Assembly (NCBI GenBank): GCA_001789805.1
Contig: MGAR01000018.1
Coordinates: forward strand, 35,981-99,980
DNA from: Candidatus Roizmanbacteria bacterium RIFCSPLOWO2_01_FULL_41_22
GTDB taxonomy: Bacteria; Patescibacteriota; Microgenomatia; UBA1406; GWC2-37-13
DNA length: 64,000 nt
Direction: 5' to 3'
A program made the translations under genes and the position numbers. Positions 16,993-64,000 of the stretch are shown in pieces. The notes beneath the pieces were generated by a model, which saw nothing but the letters and a program-made list of their open reading frames with translations, did not search any database and was not told the origin of the DNA. Numbering within the stretch: position 1 is the stretch's first letter; every line of letters starts with the position of its first letter.

Positions 16993-17475
16993 ATGAAAAA
17001 TAACATTTTGAGTTTGTCGGAGCTCAATTTACTGACGAAATCGATCTTTGGTAAGAAAGTAGTTTTGGTCGGGGGTTGCTTTGATCTTTTGCATTGGGGC
17101 CATGTGACTTTTTTAGAAAAGGCAAAAAAACAAGGGGACATTTTGGTTGTGATGCTTGAGTCAGACGAATTTATCAAAAAACAAAAAAAAAGGAGACATG
17201 TCCATAATCAGCAGCAAAGAGCTCAGATCTTAAGAGAACTACGCGTTGTGGACTATGTCATACTATTACCCTATTTTTCAAAAGACAACGATTATTCTAA
17301 TTTGGTTGAGACGATCAAGCCCGACATTATCGCCGTCTCAGAAAAAGATCCAACCATAAGTAAAAAGAAAGAACAAGCAAATAAAATAAATGCCAAAATT
17401 GTTGTGGTGACACCATTATTAATTCGCTTCTCAAGTAGCGTTATTCTACCTCATGCAGACCTTTCTGGCGATTGA
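16993..17475 (+). CDS. Cytidylyl/adenylyltransferase-family protein (HxGH nucleotidyltransferase)
   Basis: VVLVGGCFDLLHWGHVTFLEKAKKQGD has the GxFDxxHxGH signature of the TagD/RfaE-II/RibL-type family. Confidence 0.7.
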   Translation: MKNNILSLSELNLLTKSIFGKKVVLVGGCFDLLHWGHVTFLEKAKKQGDILVVMLESDEFIKKQKKRRHVHNQQQRAQILRELRVVDYVILLPYFSKDNDYSNLVETIKPDIIAVSEKDPTISKKKEQANKINAKIVVVTPLLIRFSSSVILPHADLSGD

Positions 17476-17998
17476 CATTCCTATCAATATGCAATCAAAG
17501 CTGGCGAGTCAGCTGCGGTTAATTAAAGAAGATTATCCGCAGTTTAGTTGGGTGCCTAAAGCCAATTTCCATATCACTATCCGTTATTTTGGAGAGGTGA
17601 ATAATGTGGAAAAGCTGAAAAAAAAGTTGGATCTGGCACTGTTTGATGTCCCGGCATTTTATCTATATTCGCAAGGCGCGGGAGTTTTTATTCAGCGGAG
17701 GATCCTCCTGCACATCCTCTTTCAAAGACAAAAAACCCTGGAAGCGCTGGCTGAGAAAGTAGACATTGCAGCGGAAGGGGTACGGTATTCCGAAAACCCC
17801 CCGTTTGTTCCCCATCTGACAATTGCCAGATATAAGATTCCGTCCCGTCAGCAGTATTTACATTTAAAAAAGAAGCTTGAACATTTGGATATTGATATCG
17901 AATTTCCTGTAGATAAGGTTGTTCTATATCAGAGTATCTTTCATGCTCAAGCTCCGGAGTATAAGCAAATTGCTGAATTTCCTTTGATAAAAGATTAA
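17453..17998 (+). CDS. thpR: RNA 2',3'-cyclic phosphodiesterase (2H family, ThpR/LigT)
   Basis: Two HxT motifs (FHITIRYFG and PHLTIARY) at the typical spacing. Confidence 0.8.
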   Translation: MQTFLAIDIPINMQSKLASQLRLIKEDYPQFSWVPKANFHITIRYFGEVNNVEKLKKKLDLALFDVPAFYLYSQGAGVFIQRRILLHILFQRQKTLEALAEKVDIAAEGVRYSENPPFVPHLTIARYKIPSRQQYLHLKKKLEHLDIDIEFPVDKVVLYQSIFHAQAPEYKQIAEFPLIKD

Positions 17999-42657: not shown

Positions 42658-45315
42658 TTAGATAGGATATAAGTGCATGTTCTGACGTGAAATTCGACCT
42701 GTGGATTTATCTAGGGCTTCTTGAAAATTTTTACCAATACTCATAGTTTCCCCGGTGCTTTTCATGAGTGGTCCCAGTTTAGTTGAAACACCTGGCAGTT
42801 TGTCAAAGGAGAATATCGGTGTTTTTACTGCTACATGGTTTGGTACGACCTTGCTGACATTATGATCCAATTTTTCTCCTAAAATGATTTTGGTCGCAAA
42901 CTCTGGTAAAGAGATTCCCAAGCATTTGCTTAAAAAAGGGATCGTCCGCGATGCCCGCGGATTAATCTCTAGGACATAAATTAGATTATTTTTTATGGCA
43001 TATTGAATATTGCCAAGACCAATAATTTGAAAAGCTTCGCTGATTTTGTTGGTCATAAAGATAAGTTTTTCTTGAATTGATCTACTTAGATTTTGAGGAG
43101 GATAGACACATCGACTGTCACCAGAGTGGATGCCTGCGGGTTCCAGTTGTTCTAGAATATAACTAATCGTATTTTCACCGTCACTAATAAAATCAACGTC
43201 AACCTCGATGGCATTTGCTAAAAACTCGTCAATCAAAATAGGATTATTAAAATAAAAGGCTGATAACTTTTCTAAATAACCATAAAGCTGTTTTTTATTT
43301 TGGATTATTTTCATCCCTTCGCCGCCAAGGACAAATGATGGTCTGACCAGTAAGGGATATGCTAAAGTTTTTAACTTATTTTGAATATCTTGTTTGGAAT
43401 AAATGATTTTCCATTTTGGCATTTTTATACCCAATTTTTTCATCATTTTTCCTGTCAGTTCACGATTTTCCGCCAGTTCAATGGAAGCGGAGGAAGTCCC
43501 TAATATTTTTACCTTACTTTCTTCCAGTTGCTTGGCCAGATTGATCGCTGTTTGACCTCCAAATTGGGCGATAATTCCAAGAAGATTGTTTTGTTCATTT
43601 TCAATCACTTTTTTGACAAAATTGAAAGTTAAAGGTTCAAGATAAAGTCGATCAGAAATGGAGTAATCAGTGCTGACCGTTTCCGGATTATTATTGATGA
43701 TGATTGTTTGTATACCTTTCTCTTTAAGTGCTTTCACTGCATGGACTGTCATATAATCAAATTCTATTCCTTGTCCGATACTGATTGGTCCAGCTCCGAT
43801 TATTATTACTTTTGGACATGCTAGTGGAATAGCCTCATTCTCCTCTCCTTGTGTCGAATAATAATAAGGCGTTTTAGCCTCAAATTCTCCGGCACAGGTA
43901 TCAACCATTTTATAGTTATTCAAGCTTTTCTCAATTTGGTCATAGTTGTGAGTTAAATTATTTAGCTTGGAAATAAACCAGGGATTTATATGTGTCAAAT
44001 TACTGATTTCTTTAATGGATAATTCCTGCTGAATAGCTTGGAAAATGTGTTTCAATCGCGAAGTTGTGGACTTTTTTAGTACCGGTCTTATATCTCTAAT
44101 TTTTTCTTTGTTTTCGAAAATATTTTCTTTTAAATCTAAACTTTTGACGGCTTTGTACATTGCTTCACCAAAATTTCTTCCGATACTCATCACTTCTCCG
44201 GTACTTTTCATGGTGATTCCTATGCCCAAATCCATTTCGGGAAATTTATCGCTTGGCCAACAGGGGATTTTGACGACAATATAATCCAAAGCCGGTTCAA
44301 AAAAAGCAGTTTTCCCGGTAATGTTATTAGTGAGTTCTGGTAGAGTTTTACCTAGCGCGATTTTTGTGGCAACTCTAGCTATGGGATAACCAGTGGCCTT
44401 GGAGGCGAGTGCGGAACTGCGAGAGAGTCGGGGATTAACTTCTATCACAAAATATTGGCCCGTGTGATAATTTAGAGCAAACTGAACATTACAACTACCG
44501 ACGATATTGAGCGCCTCGACTATTTTTAATGCCGAATTTCTAAATACTTGATGGTCATCATCAGATAATGTTTGGGCCGGGGCGACCACTATTGATTCGC
44601 CAGTGTGTACACCCATTGGATCAACATTTTCCATATTACAAACAATAATCTTATTGCCGGCGGCGTCTCTGATCACTTCATATTCAAATTCTCCCCAGCC
44701 CAAGACGCTTTTTTCTAACAATACTTGTTTTGTCGGACTTAACAACAAACTAGTTGATAATTTTTTTTTAAGTTCAGTAAGGTTGGTGGCATATCCGCTT
44801 CCCAACCCGCCTAAAGTGTAAGCACAACGATAAATAATCGGAAAACCAATTTTTTGAACAAAAGCAAGACCTTCTTCTATCGAGGGAATTGCTTGACTTG
44901 GCAGGACAGGTTCCTTTATCTGCTCCATTAACTGCTTGAATCTTCCCCGATCCTCTCCAAAAGATATGGCTTTTATATCTGTTCCTAAGACTTTCACCTG
45001 ATATTTTTTGAGTACTCCTTGCTTATCAAGCTGAGTGGCTAAATTCAGAGCAGTTTGTCCACCAACAGTCGCTATTAGACCCGCAGGCTTTTCTATCGCA
45101 ATAATTTGCTCTAGAACAGGTATCGTCAACGGTTCAATATAAACGATATCGGCTACTTGACGATCGGTTTGAATGGTAGCCGGATTGGAATTAACGATGA
45201 TAGACTGATAACCTTCTTCGCGGAGGGCAAGTAACGCCTGTGTTCCTGAATAATCAAATTCTGCGGCTTGTCCGATAACAATCGGTCCCGAACCGATAAT
45301 TAACACTTTTTTCAC
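42658..45315 (-). CDS. carB: Carbamoyl-phosphate synthase large subunit, short form without C-terminal allosteric domain
   Basis: Two ATP-grasp halves, each starting G(S/A)GP(I)xIGQ(A/G)xEFDY. Ends about 30 aa after KSTGETMSIG. 885 aa. Confidence 0.88.
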   Translation of the reverse strand: MKKVLIIGSGPIVIGQAAEFDYSGTQALLALREEGYQSIIVNSNPATIQTDRQVADIVYIEPLTIPVLEQIIAIEKPAGLIATVGGQTALNLATQLDKQGVLKKYQVKVLGTDIKAISFGEDRGRFKQLMEQIKEPVLPSQAIPSIEEGLAFVQKIGFPIIYRCAYTLGGLGSGYATNLTELKKKLSTSLLLSPTKQVLLEKSVLGWGEFEYEVIRDAAGNKIIVCNMENVDPMGVHTGESIVVAPAQTLSDDDHQVFRNSALKIVEALNIVGSCNVQFALNYHTGQYFVIEVNPRLSRSSALASKATGYPIARVATKIALGKTLPELTNNITGKTAFFEPALDYIVVKIPCWPSDKFPEMDLGIGITMKSTGEVMSIGRNFGEAMYKAVKSLDLKENIFENKEKIRDIRPVLKKSTTSRLKHIFQAIQQELSIKEISNLTHINPWFISKLNNLTHNYDQIEKSLNNYKMVDTCAGEFEAKTPYYYSTQGEENEAIPLACPKVIIIGAGPISIGQGIEFDYMTVHAVKALKEKGIQTIIINNNPETVSTDYSISDRLYLEPLTFNFVKKVIENEQNNLLGIIAQFGGQTAINLAKQLEESKVKILGTSSASIELAENRELTGKMMKKLGIKMPKWKIIYSKQDIQNKLKTLAYPLLVRPSFVLGGEGMKIIQNKKQLYGYLEKLSAFYFNNPILIDEFLANAIEVDVDFISDGENTISYILEQLEPAGIHSGDSRCVYPPQNLSRSIQEKLIFMTNKISEAFQIIGLGNIQYAIKNNLIYVLEINPRASRTIPFLSKCLGISLPEFATKIILGEKLDHNVSKVVPNHVAVKTPIFSFDKLPGVSTKLGPLMKSTGETMSIGKNFQEALDKSTGRISRQNMHLYPI

Positions 45316-60700: not shown

Positions 60701-61516
60701 CTATTCTAGCGGACTTTTAATGTTTTTGAGTTTCGGATTGGCCACATGCGTATATATTTGAGTTGATCTAATATTTTGATGACCAAGCAACTCTTGGACA
60801 TACCGTACGTCAACTCCGTTTTCCAAAAGATGCGTGGCAAAGCTATGGCGAAGGCTATGAAAGGTTGCGTCTTTATTAATCTCGACTTTTCTTACTGCTT
60901 TTTCAAAAACCTTTTGCGCAGTCCTGGTGGTTAGTTTTCCACCCCTTTCGCTGGCAAAAACAAAGTCGTCGATTTTCTTGCCGGCAATCAAATTTTTAAG
61001 CCCGTCAACCATTTTTTCCGGCAAAACACTGATTCTATCTTTTTGCCCTTTTGCCTGTTTGATATGAACGGTTAACTCCAACAGGTCAACATCTTTGACT
61101 TTCAGGGAAACAGCTTCGCTAACCCGAAGGCCAGCTCCATAGGAAAGCGATAATAATAGTTTATGTTTCGAATTTTGTATTGAGCCTAAAATACTATCAA
61201 TTTCATTTCTGGATAATACAACAGGCAGACTACTTGATTTTTTTGCAGATCGAATATCAATTTTCGAGGTTGTTCTGATGACTTCCTGATAAAAAAACTT
61301 GATAGCGCTTAAAAATATATTTCTGCTCTGGGGAGAAGTCCCTTTTTGCTCACGTTGTAATAAAAAGTTGCGAATATTTTCTTGATTAAGTATTTCTAAG
61401 TTGTCTTTCTTAAAGACTAAATATTCTTGCAAGCCATAAAGGTAACTTTTTACTGTTTTTGGGCTATAATTTCTGATTTTTAATTCTCGCTCTGTTTGCT
61501 CTAATTGTTTTCTCAT
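60701..61516 (-). CDS. IntI-like tyrosine recombinase without the integron-specific insertion
   Basis: R (GLRVSE), K (KGQKDR), HxxR (HSLRHSFATH), H (LLGH) and Y (IYTHV) are all present, with a tail of ...IKSPLE. Start is ATG 61516 or the alternative at 61573. Confidence 0.8.
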   Translation of the reverse strand: MRKQLEQTERELKIRNYSPKTVKSYLYGLQEYLVFKKDNLEILNQENIRNFLLQREQKGTSPQSRNIFLSAIKFFYQEVIRTTSKIDIRSAKKSSSLPVVLSRNEIDSILGSIQNSKHKLLLSLSYGAGLRVSEAVSLKVKDVDLLELTVHIKQAKGQKDRISVLPEKMVDGLKNLIAGKKIDDFVFASERGGKLTTRTAQKVFEKAVRKVEINKDATFHSLRHSFATHLLENGVDVRYVQELLGHQNIRSTQIYTHVANPKLKNIKSPLE

Positions 61517-61619
61517 TATTGTTTTGAAATATGTTAAAATACAGTCAGTTTTTATATGATTTAAGATTAACATAATATGGTATATTATACAACATTGTAA
61601 TTATATTACGAATACTATT

Positions 61620-61640
61620 CGTATAATAACGAGTTATACG
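61620..61640 (+). other. attI-like site
   Basis: CGTATAA-TAACGAG-TTATACG inverted repeat containing GTTATAC (61633-61639). Adjacent palindrome ACGAAT-ACT-ATTCGT (61608-61622). Confidence 0.5.
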
Positions 61641-61678
61641 CCATTCCATTTTTTAATTATTTGTAATAAAATCCAAAT

Positions 61679-62413
61679 ATGTGTACAACAGCCGCTAAAC
61701 AATTAAACGACAGTTGGTATCTTCTCAAAACTAGAGATCCAGTACCTTGGATGAGATGGGACGATGAAATAAAACTTTTCGATTCTAAAGCCGACAAGTT
61801 TAAAAAACTTATCATTCAAAATCCTGATCCTCACGAAGATGGTTACTACGGCGGAATTAATGGAAAAGGCGTTGCTTACGTATCGACTTTTGTCCGAGTT
61901 GCTGAAAATCAAGTTTCCTATATTCGGAGACCTTATGTCCGTCTGATATTAGATGCTTCAACCGCCAAAGAAGCTGTCGAAATCATCAAATCCTTCAACC
62001 CTCGGATCGGCGGAAATATGTTTGTGGCCGACCCTAAAGAGTGTTATGGAATTGAAGGTGTGCCAGAAAAATACCTTATTGAGAAAGTTAGTGAACCAAT
62101 GGTGAAGACCAACCATTTTGTTAACTTACCGAATAGGAATCTGGGATTTGATGAAGAAGAAAATTTTGAAAAATGGTCTTATGACCATTATGTTAGGGCA
62201 GAAGAATTAATTTCGACAGCTAATAGCTTAAAAGATTTTCAGCAACTCTTGCAGGATAGAAAGAACGCTGAAAAGAAGACAGCAATTTGCACAACGAAAG
62301 AGGAAGATGAGTGTTTTACGCATTCCGCCTTTATCTTTGATACAAAGAATCGAAAAGTTTTTTACTCCCAAGGCAACCCGTTGGAAAATGAGTTCAAGGA
62401 ATTTGGATTTTAA
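61679..62413 (+). CDS. Cassette 1: Ntn-hydrolase-like protein (C45/C59-type, N-terminal Cys)
   Basis: Starts MCT... (Cys2 as putative nucleophile). GGINGKGVA and the overall size resemble acyltransferase/choloylglycine-type Ntn hydrolases. Confidence 0.5.
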   Translation: MCTTAAKQLNDSWYLLKTRDPVPWMRWDDEIKLFDSKADKFKKLIIQNPDPHEDGYYGGINGKGVAYVSTFVRVAENQVSYIRRPYVRLILDASTAKEAVEIIKSFNPRIGGNMFVADPKECYGIEGVPEKYLIEKVSEPMVKTNHFVNLPNRNLGFDEEENFEKWSYDHYVRAEELISTANSLKDFQQLLQDRKNAEKKTAICTTKEEDECFTHSAFIFDTKNRKVFYSQGNPLENEFKEFGF

Positions 62414-62477
62414 ATATTTAAGGTAAAAAAATGGAACGTCTCCGCTGGCGCTCCGACCACGCTGCGCTCTTCGGGGC

Positions 62478-62593
62478 GTATAACACAGTATATCTGGAGA
62501 GTGCCTCAGCTCGGCACTCTCCCATATCCCGCCAAAATCTAATAAAATAAATCAAGGTATCGGTGGGACATCAGATATACTGAAACGTTAAGT
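62478..62593 (+). other. attC-like site 1 (116 bp)
   Basis: R''-like GTATAAC ... R'-like GTTAAGT. An 11-bp stem CAGTATATCTG/CAGATATACTG plus two inner hairpins. Confidence 0.65.
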
Positions 62594-62625
62594 GAAATTT
62601 GGCTCGAGACATCTAACCCTAAAAT

Positions 62626-63066
62626 ATGAGCAGAAAAATTTCTAAATACAGAAGTGAAGTAATAGAAAAATTCATAAATATTGAATCGTTGATGAATGCA
62701 ATTATCTCACAACACTACTTTAAAAAAGTGATCGCCCCTTTTGTTTTTGAGCTTCTTTACGATGTTAACTGCACTTTTGCCCTAAAAAGAAACATTTTAC
62801 AAAAAATTGAACCAAACTTTTCAAAACTAGAAACAATCAATCGTCTAAACAATATCAGAAATCTTTTTGCTCACTGTAATCAAGAAGTGTTTGAAGGCAG
62901 TAAGAAACCTGCCCCTGGAGAAACAGGCAAAGTCCTAGATCCCAAAGACACAAAGAAGGAATTAGATTTTGAAAAACTATATAAGGAGTTCACAAAGGAA
63001 GAAGGAAGCGTCACGCAAGCACTAGGAAACTTATACATGTCTTTGGGCGGTCAAATGGAAAAGTAG
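62626..63066 (+). CDS. Cassette 2: HEPN-domain protein (MtlR-like, Rx4H)
   Basis: LNNIRNLFAHC carries the R-x4-H HEPN motif in an all-helical 146-aa protein. Confidence 0.6.
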   Translation: MSRKISKYRSEVIEKFINIESLMNAIISQHYFKKVIAPFVFELLYDVNCTFALKRNILQKIEPNFSKLETINRLNNIRNLFAHCNQEVFEGSKKPAPGETGKVLDPKDTKKELDFEKLYKEFTKEEGSVTQALGNLYMSLGGQMEK

Positions 63067-63082
63067 TCTCTCGCCAAACATC

Positions 63083-63387
63083 ACTTAACACGGGCTAGCC
63101 GGTTCGCAAACCTCGAGTATTAATAATTTTTTTATAATCATTATGAGAAAAATACTAAAAATGATCTTTGCTGCTCTAGCAATTTTGGCAGTTTTTTTCC
63201 TAAGTGGAACACTTCTTGATAACCTTATTTTAAGACTCGATAGTGAGGCGGTATTTTTATCAGCACTGTCAATAACTATTATAGTGGTATTTTTGTATAA
63301 AAGGTTTGAGAAATAGCTTATTGTGAGGTTTGCTCACCCAAATTTGTCTCCGCTACGCCAAACTTCGGCTATCCAGAAACGTTATGC
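63083..63387 (+). other. Oversized attC-like site 2 (305 bp) enclosing a mini-ORF
   Basis: ACTTAAC ... GCAAACCTC / GAGGTTTGC ... TCACCCAAATTTGTCTCCGCTACGCC...CAGAAACGTTATGC. The arms are homologous to those of site 63874-63989. Confidence 0.55.
63143..63316 (+). CDS. Small two-TM membrane protein (57 aa; or 51 aa from the second ATG)
   Basis: Own translation: MRKILKMIFAALAILAVFFLSGTLLDNLILRLDSEAVFLSALSITIIVVFLYKRFEK. Confidence 0.45.
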   Translation: MRKILKMIFAALAILAVFFLSGTLLDNLILRLDSEAVFLSALSITIIVVFLYKRFEK

Positions 63388-63420
63388 GAAATAGAAAAAT
63401 TTTTTTATAATTAAATCAAT

Positions 63421-63855
63421 ATGAACGAACAATTACCAAATGCGGAATCAAGAGAAACTCCAAAAACAGTTTTGGATTACCTTTGCAACAAACACTCAAC
63501 TATTGCCAATGATTATCGAGCACCAGATGGTCGTTACTCTGAACATTGTGGTTTGATTGCAATCGATATTGCAAAGTTACTTCTTGCCGCTGGCAGGCAA
63601 CCATATATAGCAAAAGTTTCAGAAGATGTTCGCGAAGGTAGTGTTATCCGCTCAAAAACACTAACACCAACAATATACGAAGGCAGAGTAACATGGGGCG
63701 CCCATCAAGTTTGTTGCTGTAATGACCAAGCATTTGATCCAATGCTAGACAGACCAATTGCTATTAATGACTACACCAAAACTATTTTTGGAGAAGACAT
63801 TAAAATGGAAATCTTGATTCCGCACGAACAAATAGAGGAATTTATTAATAGGTAG
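63421..63855 (+). CDS. Cassette: hypothetical protein (144 aa) with Cys/His pattern
   Basis: EHCGLIAIDIAKLL ... WGAHQVCCC ... D suggests a possible papain/transglutaminase-like Cys-His-Asp arrangement. Weak evidence. Confidence 0.5.
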   Translation: MNEQLPNAESRETPKTVLDYLCNKHSTIANDYRAPDGRYSEHCGLIAIDIAKLLLAAGRQPYIAKVSEDVREGSVIRSKTLTPTIYEGRVTWGAHQVCCCNDQAFDPMLDRPIAINDYTKTIFGEDIKMEILIPHEQIEEFINR

Positions 63856-63873
63856 AAAATTTTTTTCTACATC

Positions 63874-63989
63874 GCCTAACAGCGTGTATGCGGTTCAAGA
63901 AAAAGTGCGTTAAATAATTTTCAAAGGTTGCACTTTTTCTTTCACCCAAATTCGCCTACGGCGAACTTCTCATAATCCTGACGTTATAT
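63874..63989 (+). other. attC-like site 3 (116 bp)
   Basis: GCCTAAC ... AAAAAGTGC/GCACTTTTT 9-bp stem ... TCACCCAAATTCGCCTACGGCGAACTTC...CTGACGTTATAT. Confidence 0.65.
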
Positions 63990-64000
63990 GGAATTGCTCT

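Follow-up and report, generated by a model that had tools for sequence, protein, structure and literature searches.

Integrons combine an integrase gene with co-oriented gene cassettes that are read divergently from it and mostly carry single genes of unknown function. An attI site adjoins the integrase gene, while the cassette sites follow the plan R''-L''...L'-R', in which R' begins GTTA... and R'' ends ...TAAC, and their structure is kept more than their sequence. Complementarity between the start of a cassette and its own R'' is a hallmark of integron cassettes and usually covers six bases. All of these features, for which the sedentary chromosomal integrons are the closest comparison, recur near the 3' end of the window analysed here, a stretch of 64,000 nucleotides (nt) of contig MGAR01000018.1 (positions 35,981 to 99,980) of Candidatus Roizmanbacteria bacterium RIFCSPLOWO2_01_FULL_41_22, where a tyrosine recombinase gene is linked to an array of cassettes with covarying sites, the whole unit being an insertion. 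The recombinase is the nearest sampled relative of the integron integrase IntI and shares with it the C-terminal Y-x12-SPL tail. The locus is likely to be an integron-like platform for gene capture, set in the chromosome of a member of the Patescibacteria, with this gene coding for its integrase. The locus nevertheless differs from integrons in several respects: the pairing of the R arms in the window extends over 10-25 bp, the recombinase lacks the IntI-specific I2 region and scores under the TIGR02249 cut-off, sites of the window type carry no extrahelical bases, the variable part of the site is a conserved three-way junction of up to 264 nt with an open reading frame (ORF), and the attI-like site is no more than a palindrome of the dif type.

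The same locus also invites comparison with Xer recombinases acting at dif. Like XerA (4a8e, 5hxy), XerC and XerD, the protein is of similar size and has a two-domain fold without an insertion, and at the core site a centre of 6-8 bp separates two inverted arms. The right arm (TTATRYGAAAT) is similar to the XerD arm of Escherichia coli dif, taken here as TTATGTTAAAT, a similarity that serves as a lead and not as a test. Unlike these enzymes, the recombinase is accessory, patchily distributed, sometimes present in several copies, linked to cassettes and placed apart in trees, while the phylum has a separate, near-universal Xer. In the CTX-phi-type integrative mobile elements exploiting Xer (IMEXs), folded single-stranded DNA (ssDNA) mimics the duplex dif core for XerCD, an enzyme likewise without I2, and this folded-strand route has been discussed as a possible origin of integrons (PMC7790495). 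Here, however, a proposed capture platform with its own linked recombinase and many arrayed cassettes takes the place of a single phage genome that hijacks the housekeeping Xer of the host. The pdif modules of Acinetobacter (PMC6449649) resemble the locus as small accessory modules strung together with inverted Xer-type sites at their bounds. In these modules, however, a complete 28-bp duplex site stands on either side and host XerC/D is used, whereas the halves in the window have unequal spacers and make one site only if paired within one strand.

Both IntegronFinder and a study of archaeal integrons require the IntI-specific additional domain of an integron integrase (bioRxiv 10.1101/2022.02.06.479319), and IntegronFinder would therefore not call the present protein an integrase. 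Among Firmicutes and Bacteroidetes, integrons are reported to be very rare (PMC9024848). A published description of such a platform in Patescibacteria, the ultra-small bacteria also known as the Candidate Phyla Radiation (CPR), was not found in the literature searched, in which subscription journals were thinly covered, so that its absence there is not proof. The gene belongs to a large recombinase family for which we found no description, and the most fitting name for the locus is an integron-like platform whose recombinase is insert-less and IntI-related.

Absence of the IntI-specific region from the recombinase

The ORF at 60701-61573 on the minus strand is intact and codes for 290 amino acids (aa). 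More than 6,900 homologues (e-value below 1e-20) were retrieved, nearly all of 270 aa and starting at the position of M20 of the query; because homologues of about this length begin there, M20 at 61516 is probably the start codon, giving a protein of 271 aa. All of the IntI-like motifs listed in the initial annotation are present (LPVVLS, YGAGLRVSE, LKVKDVD, KGQKDR, HSLRHSFATHLL, LLGH, IYTHV and the C-terminal KSPLE). The catalytic set is complete, comprising R (GLRVSE), K (KGQKDR), HxxR (HSLRH), H (LLGH) and Y (IYTHV), and each of these residues has its aligned counterpart in IntI1 and IntI2, while the C-terminal Y-x12-SPL spacing is also found in IntI1 and IntI4. Pfam comparison identified an N-terminal SAM-like domain and the Phage_integrase catalytic domain (PF00589; e-value: 5e-45).

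The region that distinguishes IntI was examined with the NCBIfam model TIGR02249, phmmer against the PDB, a MAFFT alignment with IntI1 and IntI2 sequences taken from plasmids, and a self-built hidden Markov model (HMM). TIGR02249 (integron integrase) is the best NCBIfam family of the query (215.9 bits; cut-off: 265), followed by NF040815 (XerA_Arch; 213.2 bits; cut-off: 220), the XerC/XerD families (~191 bits; cut-offs: 330-335) and NF011946 (140.8 bits; cut-off: 435), all scores falling below the respective cut-offs. The TIGR02249 match is split between profile positions 2-178 and 237-313, with the 58 positions 179-236 skipped. Similarly, the top PDB match, VchIntIA (IntI4, 2a3v; e-value: 5e-42), is divided between IntI residues 13-186 and 245-317, and 16 residues of the query stand where IntI4 has 58 (187-244, unmatched). 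In the MAFFT alignment, ~40 extra residues of IntI1 and IntI2, including ALERKYP, HTHSTD and VVRRH, have no counterpart. The HMM of the IntI-specific region, trained on 79 IntIs with IntI2 held out, recovers the held-out IntI2 (8.5e-12) and none of the insert-less proteins. Furthermore, the AlphaFold model of the query (pLDDT, the predicted local distance difference test score: 78) has a short strand and a loop at the insertion position and no helix; in a Foldseek search this model matched 2a3v best (7e-17) and XerA next. The profile, the 2a3v match, the alignment and the region HMM thus bear out the missing segment reported in the initial annotation and confirm that the I2 region is absent from the query rather than diverged. 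The shortness of the interval between the KDR hairpin and the HxxR box likewise stands, at 58 aa compared with 100 in IntI1 and IntI2, 60-62 in XerA and 66 in XerD, although the original figure of about 45 aa does not, as the segment quoted (42 aa) omitted the 16 residues after KDR.

Two maximum-likelihood trees were computed from 33 and 50 rows with the insertion columns excluded. In both, IntI and the insert-less family form one clade (support: 98/97 and 99/94, respectively) which stands apart from XerA (4a8e, 5hxy), E. coli XerD and the two other Xers of the genome, and the query does not cluster with dimer-resolving XerC/D. IntI itself is monophyletic (100/100). The best tree nests IntI among the insert-less proteins, but the approximately unbiased (AU) test retains a sister arrangement (p = 0.29), with few IntI and Xer rows in the comparison. 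As this sampling is thin, only the status of nearest relatives is claimed, and in these trees the query family is the nearest sampled relative of the integron integrases.

The attI-like core, cassettes and folded sites

The features of the locus are as follows (position 1 is the first nucleotide of the window):

60701-61516, minus strand: tyrosine recombinase, 271 aa from M20 (frame open to 61573)
61617-61644, plus strand: attI-like core, imperfect palindrome ATTCGTATAA-TAACGAG-TTATACGCCAT
61634-62586, plus strand: cassette 1, ORF 61679-62413, product like the C45/AAT-type N-terminal nucleophile (Ntn) hydrolases
62478-62593, plus strand: attC-like site 1, predicted single-strand fold, row 1 of the 14-site alignment
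62588-63381, plus strand: cassette 2, ORF 62626-63066, 146 aa, weak HEPN hint (0.011)
63083-63387, plus strand: attC-like site 2, 305 nt, unusually long
63382-63983, plus strand: cassette 3, ORF 63421-63855, 144 aa, no family match
63874-63989, plus strand: attC-like site 3, R'' GCCTAAC at 63874-63880 and R' GTTATAT at 63983-63989
63984-64000, plus strand: start of cassette 4, which continues past the end of the window

The attI-like core has two inverted arms about a 7-bp centre, as in dif, and sits ~45-100 nt upstream of the recombinase gene, directed away from it. By analogy with integrons, crossover is predicted between G61633 and the following TT; the right arm of the core already lies within cassette 1. 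At least four co-oriented cassettes follow, and all of the boundaries read ...AC/GTTAnnn (the slash marks the junction). The co-oriented ORFs are located at 61679-62413, 62626-63066, 63143-63316 and 63421-63855, with a further one at 64052-64348 at contig level, while housekeeping genes on the opposite strand lie beyond the last cassette. Each cassette begins with 10-25 nt that are complementary to the flank of its own R'', and in the window cassettes the R arms pair without gaps. For cassette 1, the start GTTATACGCC (from 61633) is matched in full by its complement GGCGTATAAC at 62475-62484 (10/10), while the start of cassette 2, GTTAAGTGAAATTTGGCTCGAGAC, pairs with 63066-63089 at 20/24 positions and that of cassette 3, GTTATGCGAAATAG..., with 63856-63880 at 20/25.

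The cassette 1 protein starts with Met-Cys and matches PF03417 (e-value: 1.6e-15). Its site comprises R'' GTATAAC (62478-62484), the spacer AC, L'' AGTATATCTGGA (62487-62498), two inner hairpins, L' ATCAGATATACT (62570-62581), the spacer GAAAC and R' GTTAAGT (62587-62593), and as ssDNA has fold z-scores of -3.8 on the plus and -4.4 on the minus strand. In an exact-sequence look-up, an identical recombinase was found on one other contig only, of 2.3 kb, which carries the same cassette 1 and ends within attC-like site 1. A GC-rich stretch before R'' of site 1 (62430-62477; ...cgctccgaccacgctgcgctcttcggggc) is conserved in two loci of relatives (L034 and L045) and in contig C33 of the same genome, which is unexpected because its pairing partner, the cassette start, varies.

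Site 2 consists of R'' ACTTAAC, L'' GGGCTAGCCG, L' CGGCTATCC, the spacer agaaac and R' GTTATGC. Its arms enclose 264 nt with a 57-codon ORF (63143-63316) whose product has the look of a two-helix membrane protein; either the site tolerates a very large loop or a mini-gene has been captured. In site 3 the L stem is partly degraded. Positions 63878-63958 of this site share 92.7% identity with 2442-2522 of locus L034, from a genome of another genus (G139), where an unrelated ORF precedes the site, suggesting that cassette sites are shared across lineages more closely than the genes that accompany them. The ORF of cassette 4 (window-equivalent 64052-64348) gives a weak HicB-like hint (0.048); with Pfam at relaxed thresholds, this and the HEPN hint of cassette 2 are all that cassettes 2-4 yielded. 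A degenerate last site, ATCGCATATACC-aaaaaa-GTTATTC, is found near window-equivalent 64436-64470, followed by the coaBC stop codon at 64497. Scans for sigma-70 promoters and terminators gave no excess over shuffled sequence, and Rfam returned no matches for the sites of the window, nor for the sites and leader element in relatives.

For the comparison of the cassette side, 18 loci were taken from the phylum sample and 80 from named genomes. The attI-like arm was sought as TTA[ATG]RYG..A[TA] within 330 nt upstream of the recombinase gene and directed toward the cassettes, a stricter pattern having missed most of the diverged loci. It is present in 28/59 family loci, while the controls gave 5/59 on the other strand and 3/59 past the stop codon. 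Site pairs were picked by their anchors only (TAACA...RACGTTA), with partners swapped between loci as the control; a finder of fixed geometry yields chance matches in AT-rich DNA, and its counts were not used as statistics. Thirty anchor-picked pairs lie in the cassette orientation versus four on the opposite strand, and in 18 of the 30 the L'' and L' arms are complementary at nine or more of 12 positions, compared with 4.9% for swapped partners.

Fourteen sites were aligned and folded with RNAalifold, giving a three-way junction in which the L stem meets a first hairpin and a second stem. Compensatory changes occur in 18 of its 21 pairs, and 91.5% of the cells are paired, versus 67% after shuffling (0/500 shuffles reach the observed value) and 25-47% when the partners are slid. 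Pairing of the L stem had partly guided the choice of these sites; the second stem, which played no part in it, covaries as well. The site plan is R''-(2 nt)-L''...L'-(5 nt)-R'. The stems have no bulged (extrahelical) bases, L'' and L' both being 12 nt long and gapless in all fourteen sites. The asymmetries of the site are the 2-nt and 5-nt spacers, a G.T pair that closes the L stem in 12/14 sites, and two conserved mismatches in the extended R arm.

An element of ~85 nt, aggggtataaggtGTTTTCtccgctccgctacGAAAACgatttatttataagggg, is located just before cassette ORFs in many arrays that come from different families, with 83-98% identity (L032 2246-2330; L034 2796-2879 and 8111-8192; L030 2311-2387; and the reverse complement of C33 of the same genome, ~740-830). 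It is not found in the window array, and could represent a leader, a promoter or a regulatory hairpin.

Distribution, insertion and cargo of the platform

The source genome (~1.0 Mb; 37 contigs; 40% GC) encodes four tyrosine recombinases, namely the query, a paralogue on contig C11 and the products of two genes on contigs C9 and C17, for which the best families are XerD and XerC. In a sample of 151 genomes spread evenly over the phylum, 145 carry a XerC/D-like gene of the C9 type, nearly always in one copy, and this gene is retained in the genomes that carry the query family. The latter occurs in 26/151 genomes and in none of the seven sampled from the same class, while members from different CPR classes share 68-81% identity. 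This patchy presence, together with the high identity across classes, fits an accessory, horizontally moving gene, and by its distribution the query is an accessory recombinase rather than a housekeeping Xer.

The MiaB-like gene and coaBC that flank the locus are 10 nt apart in a genome of the same family (G163) and adjacent in another (G165). As these genes are neighbours in related genera, the recombinase and its array represent a 3.8-kb insertion, which has a GC content of 36% versus 40-42% in its flanks. No tRNA-type att duplication flanks the island. The cargo beside the integrase is different in each genome, with many restriction-modification, toxin-antitoxin and defence genes. An all-versus-all blastp of 628 cassette-side ORFs from all loci revealed almost no cassette common to different genomes, and thus provides no direct evidence for cassette movement. 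Furthermore, 20 of 41 CPR-type contigs (L058-L098) break off within 600 nt of the integrase on its upstream side, compared with three within the same distance past its stop codon. Such upstream breaks would be the expected product of population heterogeneity or of array repeats, and as a result metagenome-assembled genomes (MAGs) probably lack many of the arrays.

A second platform is present in the same genome. The C11 paralogue (43022-44028) is intact, codes for 270 aa and shares 59% identity with the query; its reading as a pseudogene was rejected, the reported TGA lying upstream of the real start codon. Its attI-like core, ...ATAAAAACCAG/TTATACGAAAT, is 60 nt from the end of the contig. 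The end of C33 (17393-19483) begins inside a cassette site and contains more cassettes, with a canonical site at 17393-17514, and the two contig ends may join. The boundary motif (GTTA and eight partly degenerate bases, for example GTTATGCGAAAT) has seven matches in the genome, five of which adjoin the two recombinase genes or lie in a cassette array. A pattern search of the rest of the genome for an isolated dif-like site gave nothing convincing.

Proposed recombination through a folded strand and the competing explanations

In the mechanism that we propose for the integron-like platform, the whole unit of integrase and array would itself have been acquired between the MiaB-like gene and coaBC, and cassettes would leave the array as circles. 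One strand of the cassette site would fold to the three-way junction, so that the paired R and L arms mimic a double-stranded attI/dif-like core, and strand exchange would take place at ACG/TTA in an IntI-like manner, with either attI or a second folded site as the partner of the folded site. The choice of strand and orientation would depend on the unequal spacers (2 nt versus 5 nt), the G.T pair and the two R-arm mismatches. These other asymmetries would have to provide the cues, because there are no extrahelical bases and no I2 helix to read them. The initial annotation suggested an integron integrase of minimal form, or else a Xer-like enzyme that acts on folded attC-like sites through a different mode of recognition. 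This suggestion is consistent with a recombinase that groups with IntI, lacks I2, is accessory and adjoins an attI-like core and covarying folded sites, and both of its phrasings fit what can be read from the sequences.

Several observations weigh against cassette recombination of this kind. Gain of the I2 helix, which reads the extrahelical attC bases, is held to have enabled single-strand recombination by IntI (PMC7790495), and IntI1 without I2 is inactive (Messier and Roy 2001, as cited in PMC7790495). Since deletion of I2 abolishes the activity of IntI1, going by that citation, a hairpin reaction without I2 would be unprecedented experimentally. About half of the family loci have no attI-like arm under the pattern used, and the trees contain few IntI and Xer sequences. 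Folding of ssDNA is deduced from covariation, and the same pairs could work in RNA. No circular cassettes and no empty junctions inside the array were found, nor any cassette shared between the arrays compared, and the array of the window may be old and static, as the L stem of site 3 is degraded and the last site degenerate.

The recombinase could alternatively be an ordinary integrase of an island or prophage remnant, with the structured repeats nearby being unrelated to it, for example terminators, repeats like the repetitive extragenic palindromic (REP) sequences or the miniature inverted-repeat transposable elements (MITEs), or RNA structures. The island-typical cargo of the relatives and the insertion of the whole unit fit such an origin, and RNA and DNA structures are not separable by covariation alone. 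It would leave unexplained, however, why the cassette starts are complementary to their own R'' over 10-25 nt and across an ORF, and why the core and all cassette boundaries share the fixed ACG/TTA junction. Five of the seven matches to the boundary motif lie beside the recombinase genes or in a cassette array, the flanks of the island show no tRNA-type att duplication, and the sites match nothing in Rfam. On balance, we regard an ordinary integrase as improbable.

A different objection concerns the state in which the sites are used. They could act as double-stranded DNA, as in the Acinetobacter pdif modules or in a shufflon, the repeats at the cassette ends then being two Xer-type sites. Inverted repeats of 24-25 nt do flank each cassette, and the 3' half of every site, read linearly (L' arm, 6-7 nt, TTAxGxGAAAT), is similar to the attI/dif-like core. 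In addition, enzymes without I2 are known on duplex sites only (PMC7790495) and Xer-dependent dif modules exist (PMC6449649). The centre of the R''-side copy is, however, 3 nt shorter than that of its counterpart (2 versus 5 nt) and does not make an equivalent duplex core, and duplex use would create no need for L''/L' and the inner stem to covary. The cassettes in the window and in the arrays examined in detail all point in one direction, and the anchors do so at 30:4, an order which frequent inversion would scramble. A duplex mechanism of the pdif type fits less well, given the shorter R''-side centre and the covarying stems, and we consider it unlikely. A chromosome-dimer-resolving Xer, in the form of a single XerA-like enzyme with the adjacent core as the chromosomal dif, can draw on an NF040815 score barely under its cut-off (213.2 against 220), the dif-like shape of 61617-61644 and the XerA structures as second-best matches, but is largely refuted by distribution (26/151 genomes, against 145/151 with a single-copy C9-type gene), and the two family copies and two other Xer-like genes in the genome, the insertion of the gene with its neighbours between genes adjacent in related genera, and the 99/94 branch separating the family from XerA and XerD make it very improbable.

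If the locus is an integron-like platform as we propose, current surveys would miss a whole class of gene-capture platforms, leaving a gap in Patescibacteria, for which no integrons were reported in the literature searched, and apparently also in Bacteroidota and Firmicutes. It would furthermore provide a living example of the transition from Xer to IntI, so far modelled only by directed evolution, and would help to explain the exchange of defence and toxin-antitoxin genes among bacteria with genomes of ~1 Mb. We tentatively raise the further possibility that the insert-less family is the ancestral form of the integron integrases, or its closest surviving relative, which captures hairpin cassettes without I2 or extrahelical bases and is widespread rather than a CPR oddity. 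The folded cassette site would then simply mimic the dif-like attI core, and the cultured strains Flavobacterium difficile KDG-16 and Saccharibacillus kuerlensis DSM 22868 would make this question directly testable.

In DPANN archaea, relatives of the recombinase are present and cassette sites were not found beside them, while in Spirochaetes, and in Bacteroidota and Firmicutes with the two cultured strains among them, similar attC-like sites adjoin the relatives. The insert-less relatives in KDG-16 (L114) and DSM 22868 (L101) are 37-43% identical to the query and carry an extra ~100 aa at the N-terminus. Each of the two loci contains three to four near-identical attC-like sites (122 nt and 86 nt, respectively; ...ggaacGTTA...), which are located downstream of the integrase and run in the same direction. 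In the KDG-16 locus, an attI-like core lies just past the integrase stop codon, and the R'' flank of the first cassette is complementary to it at 11/12 positions.

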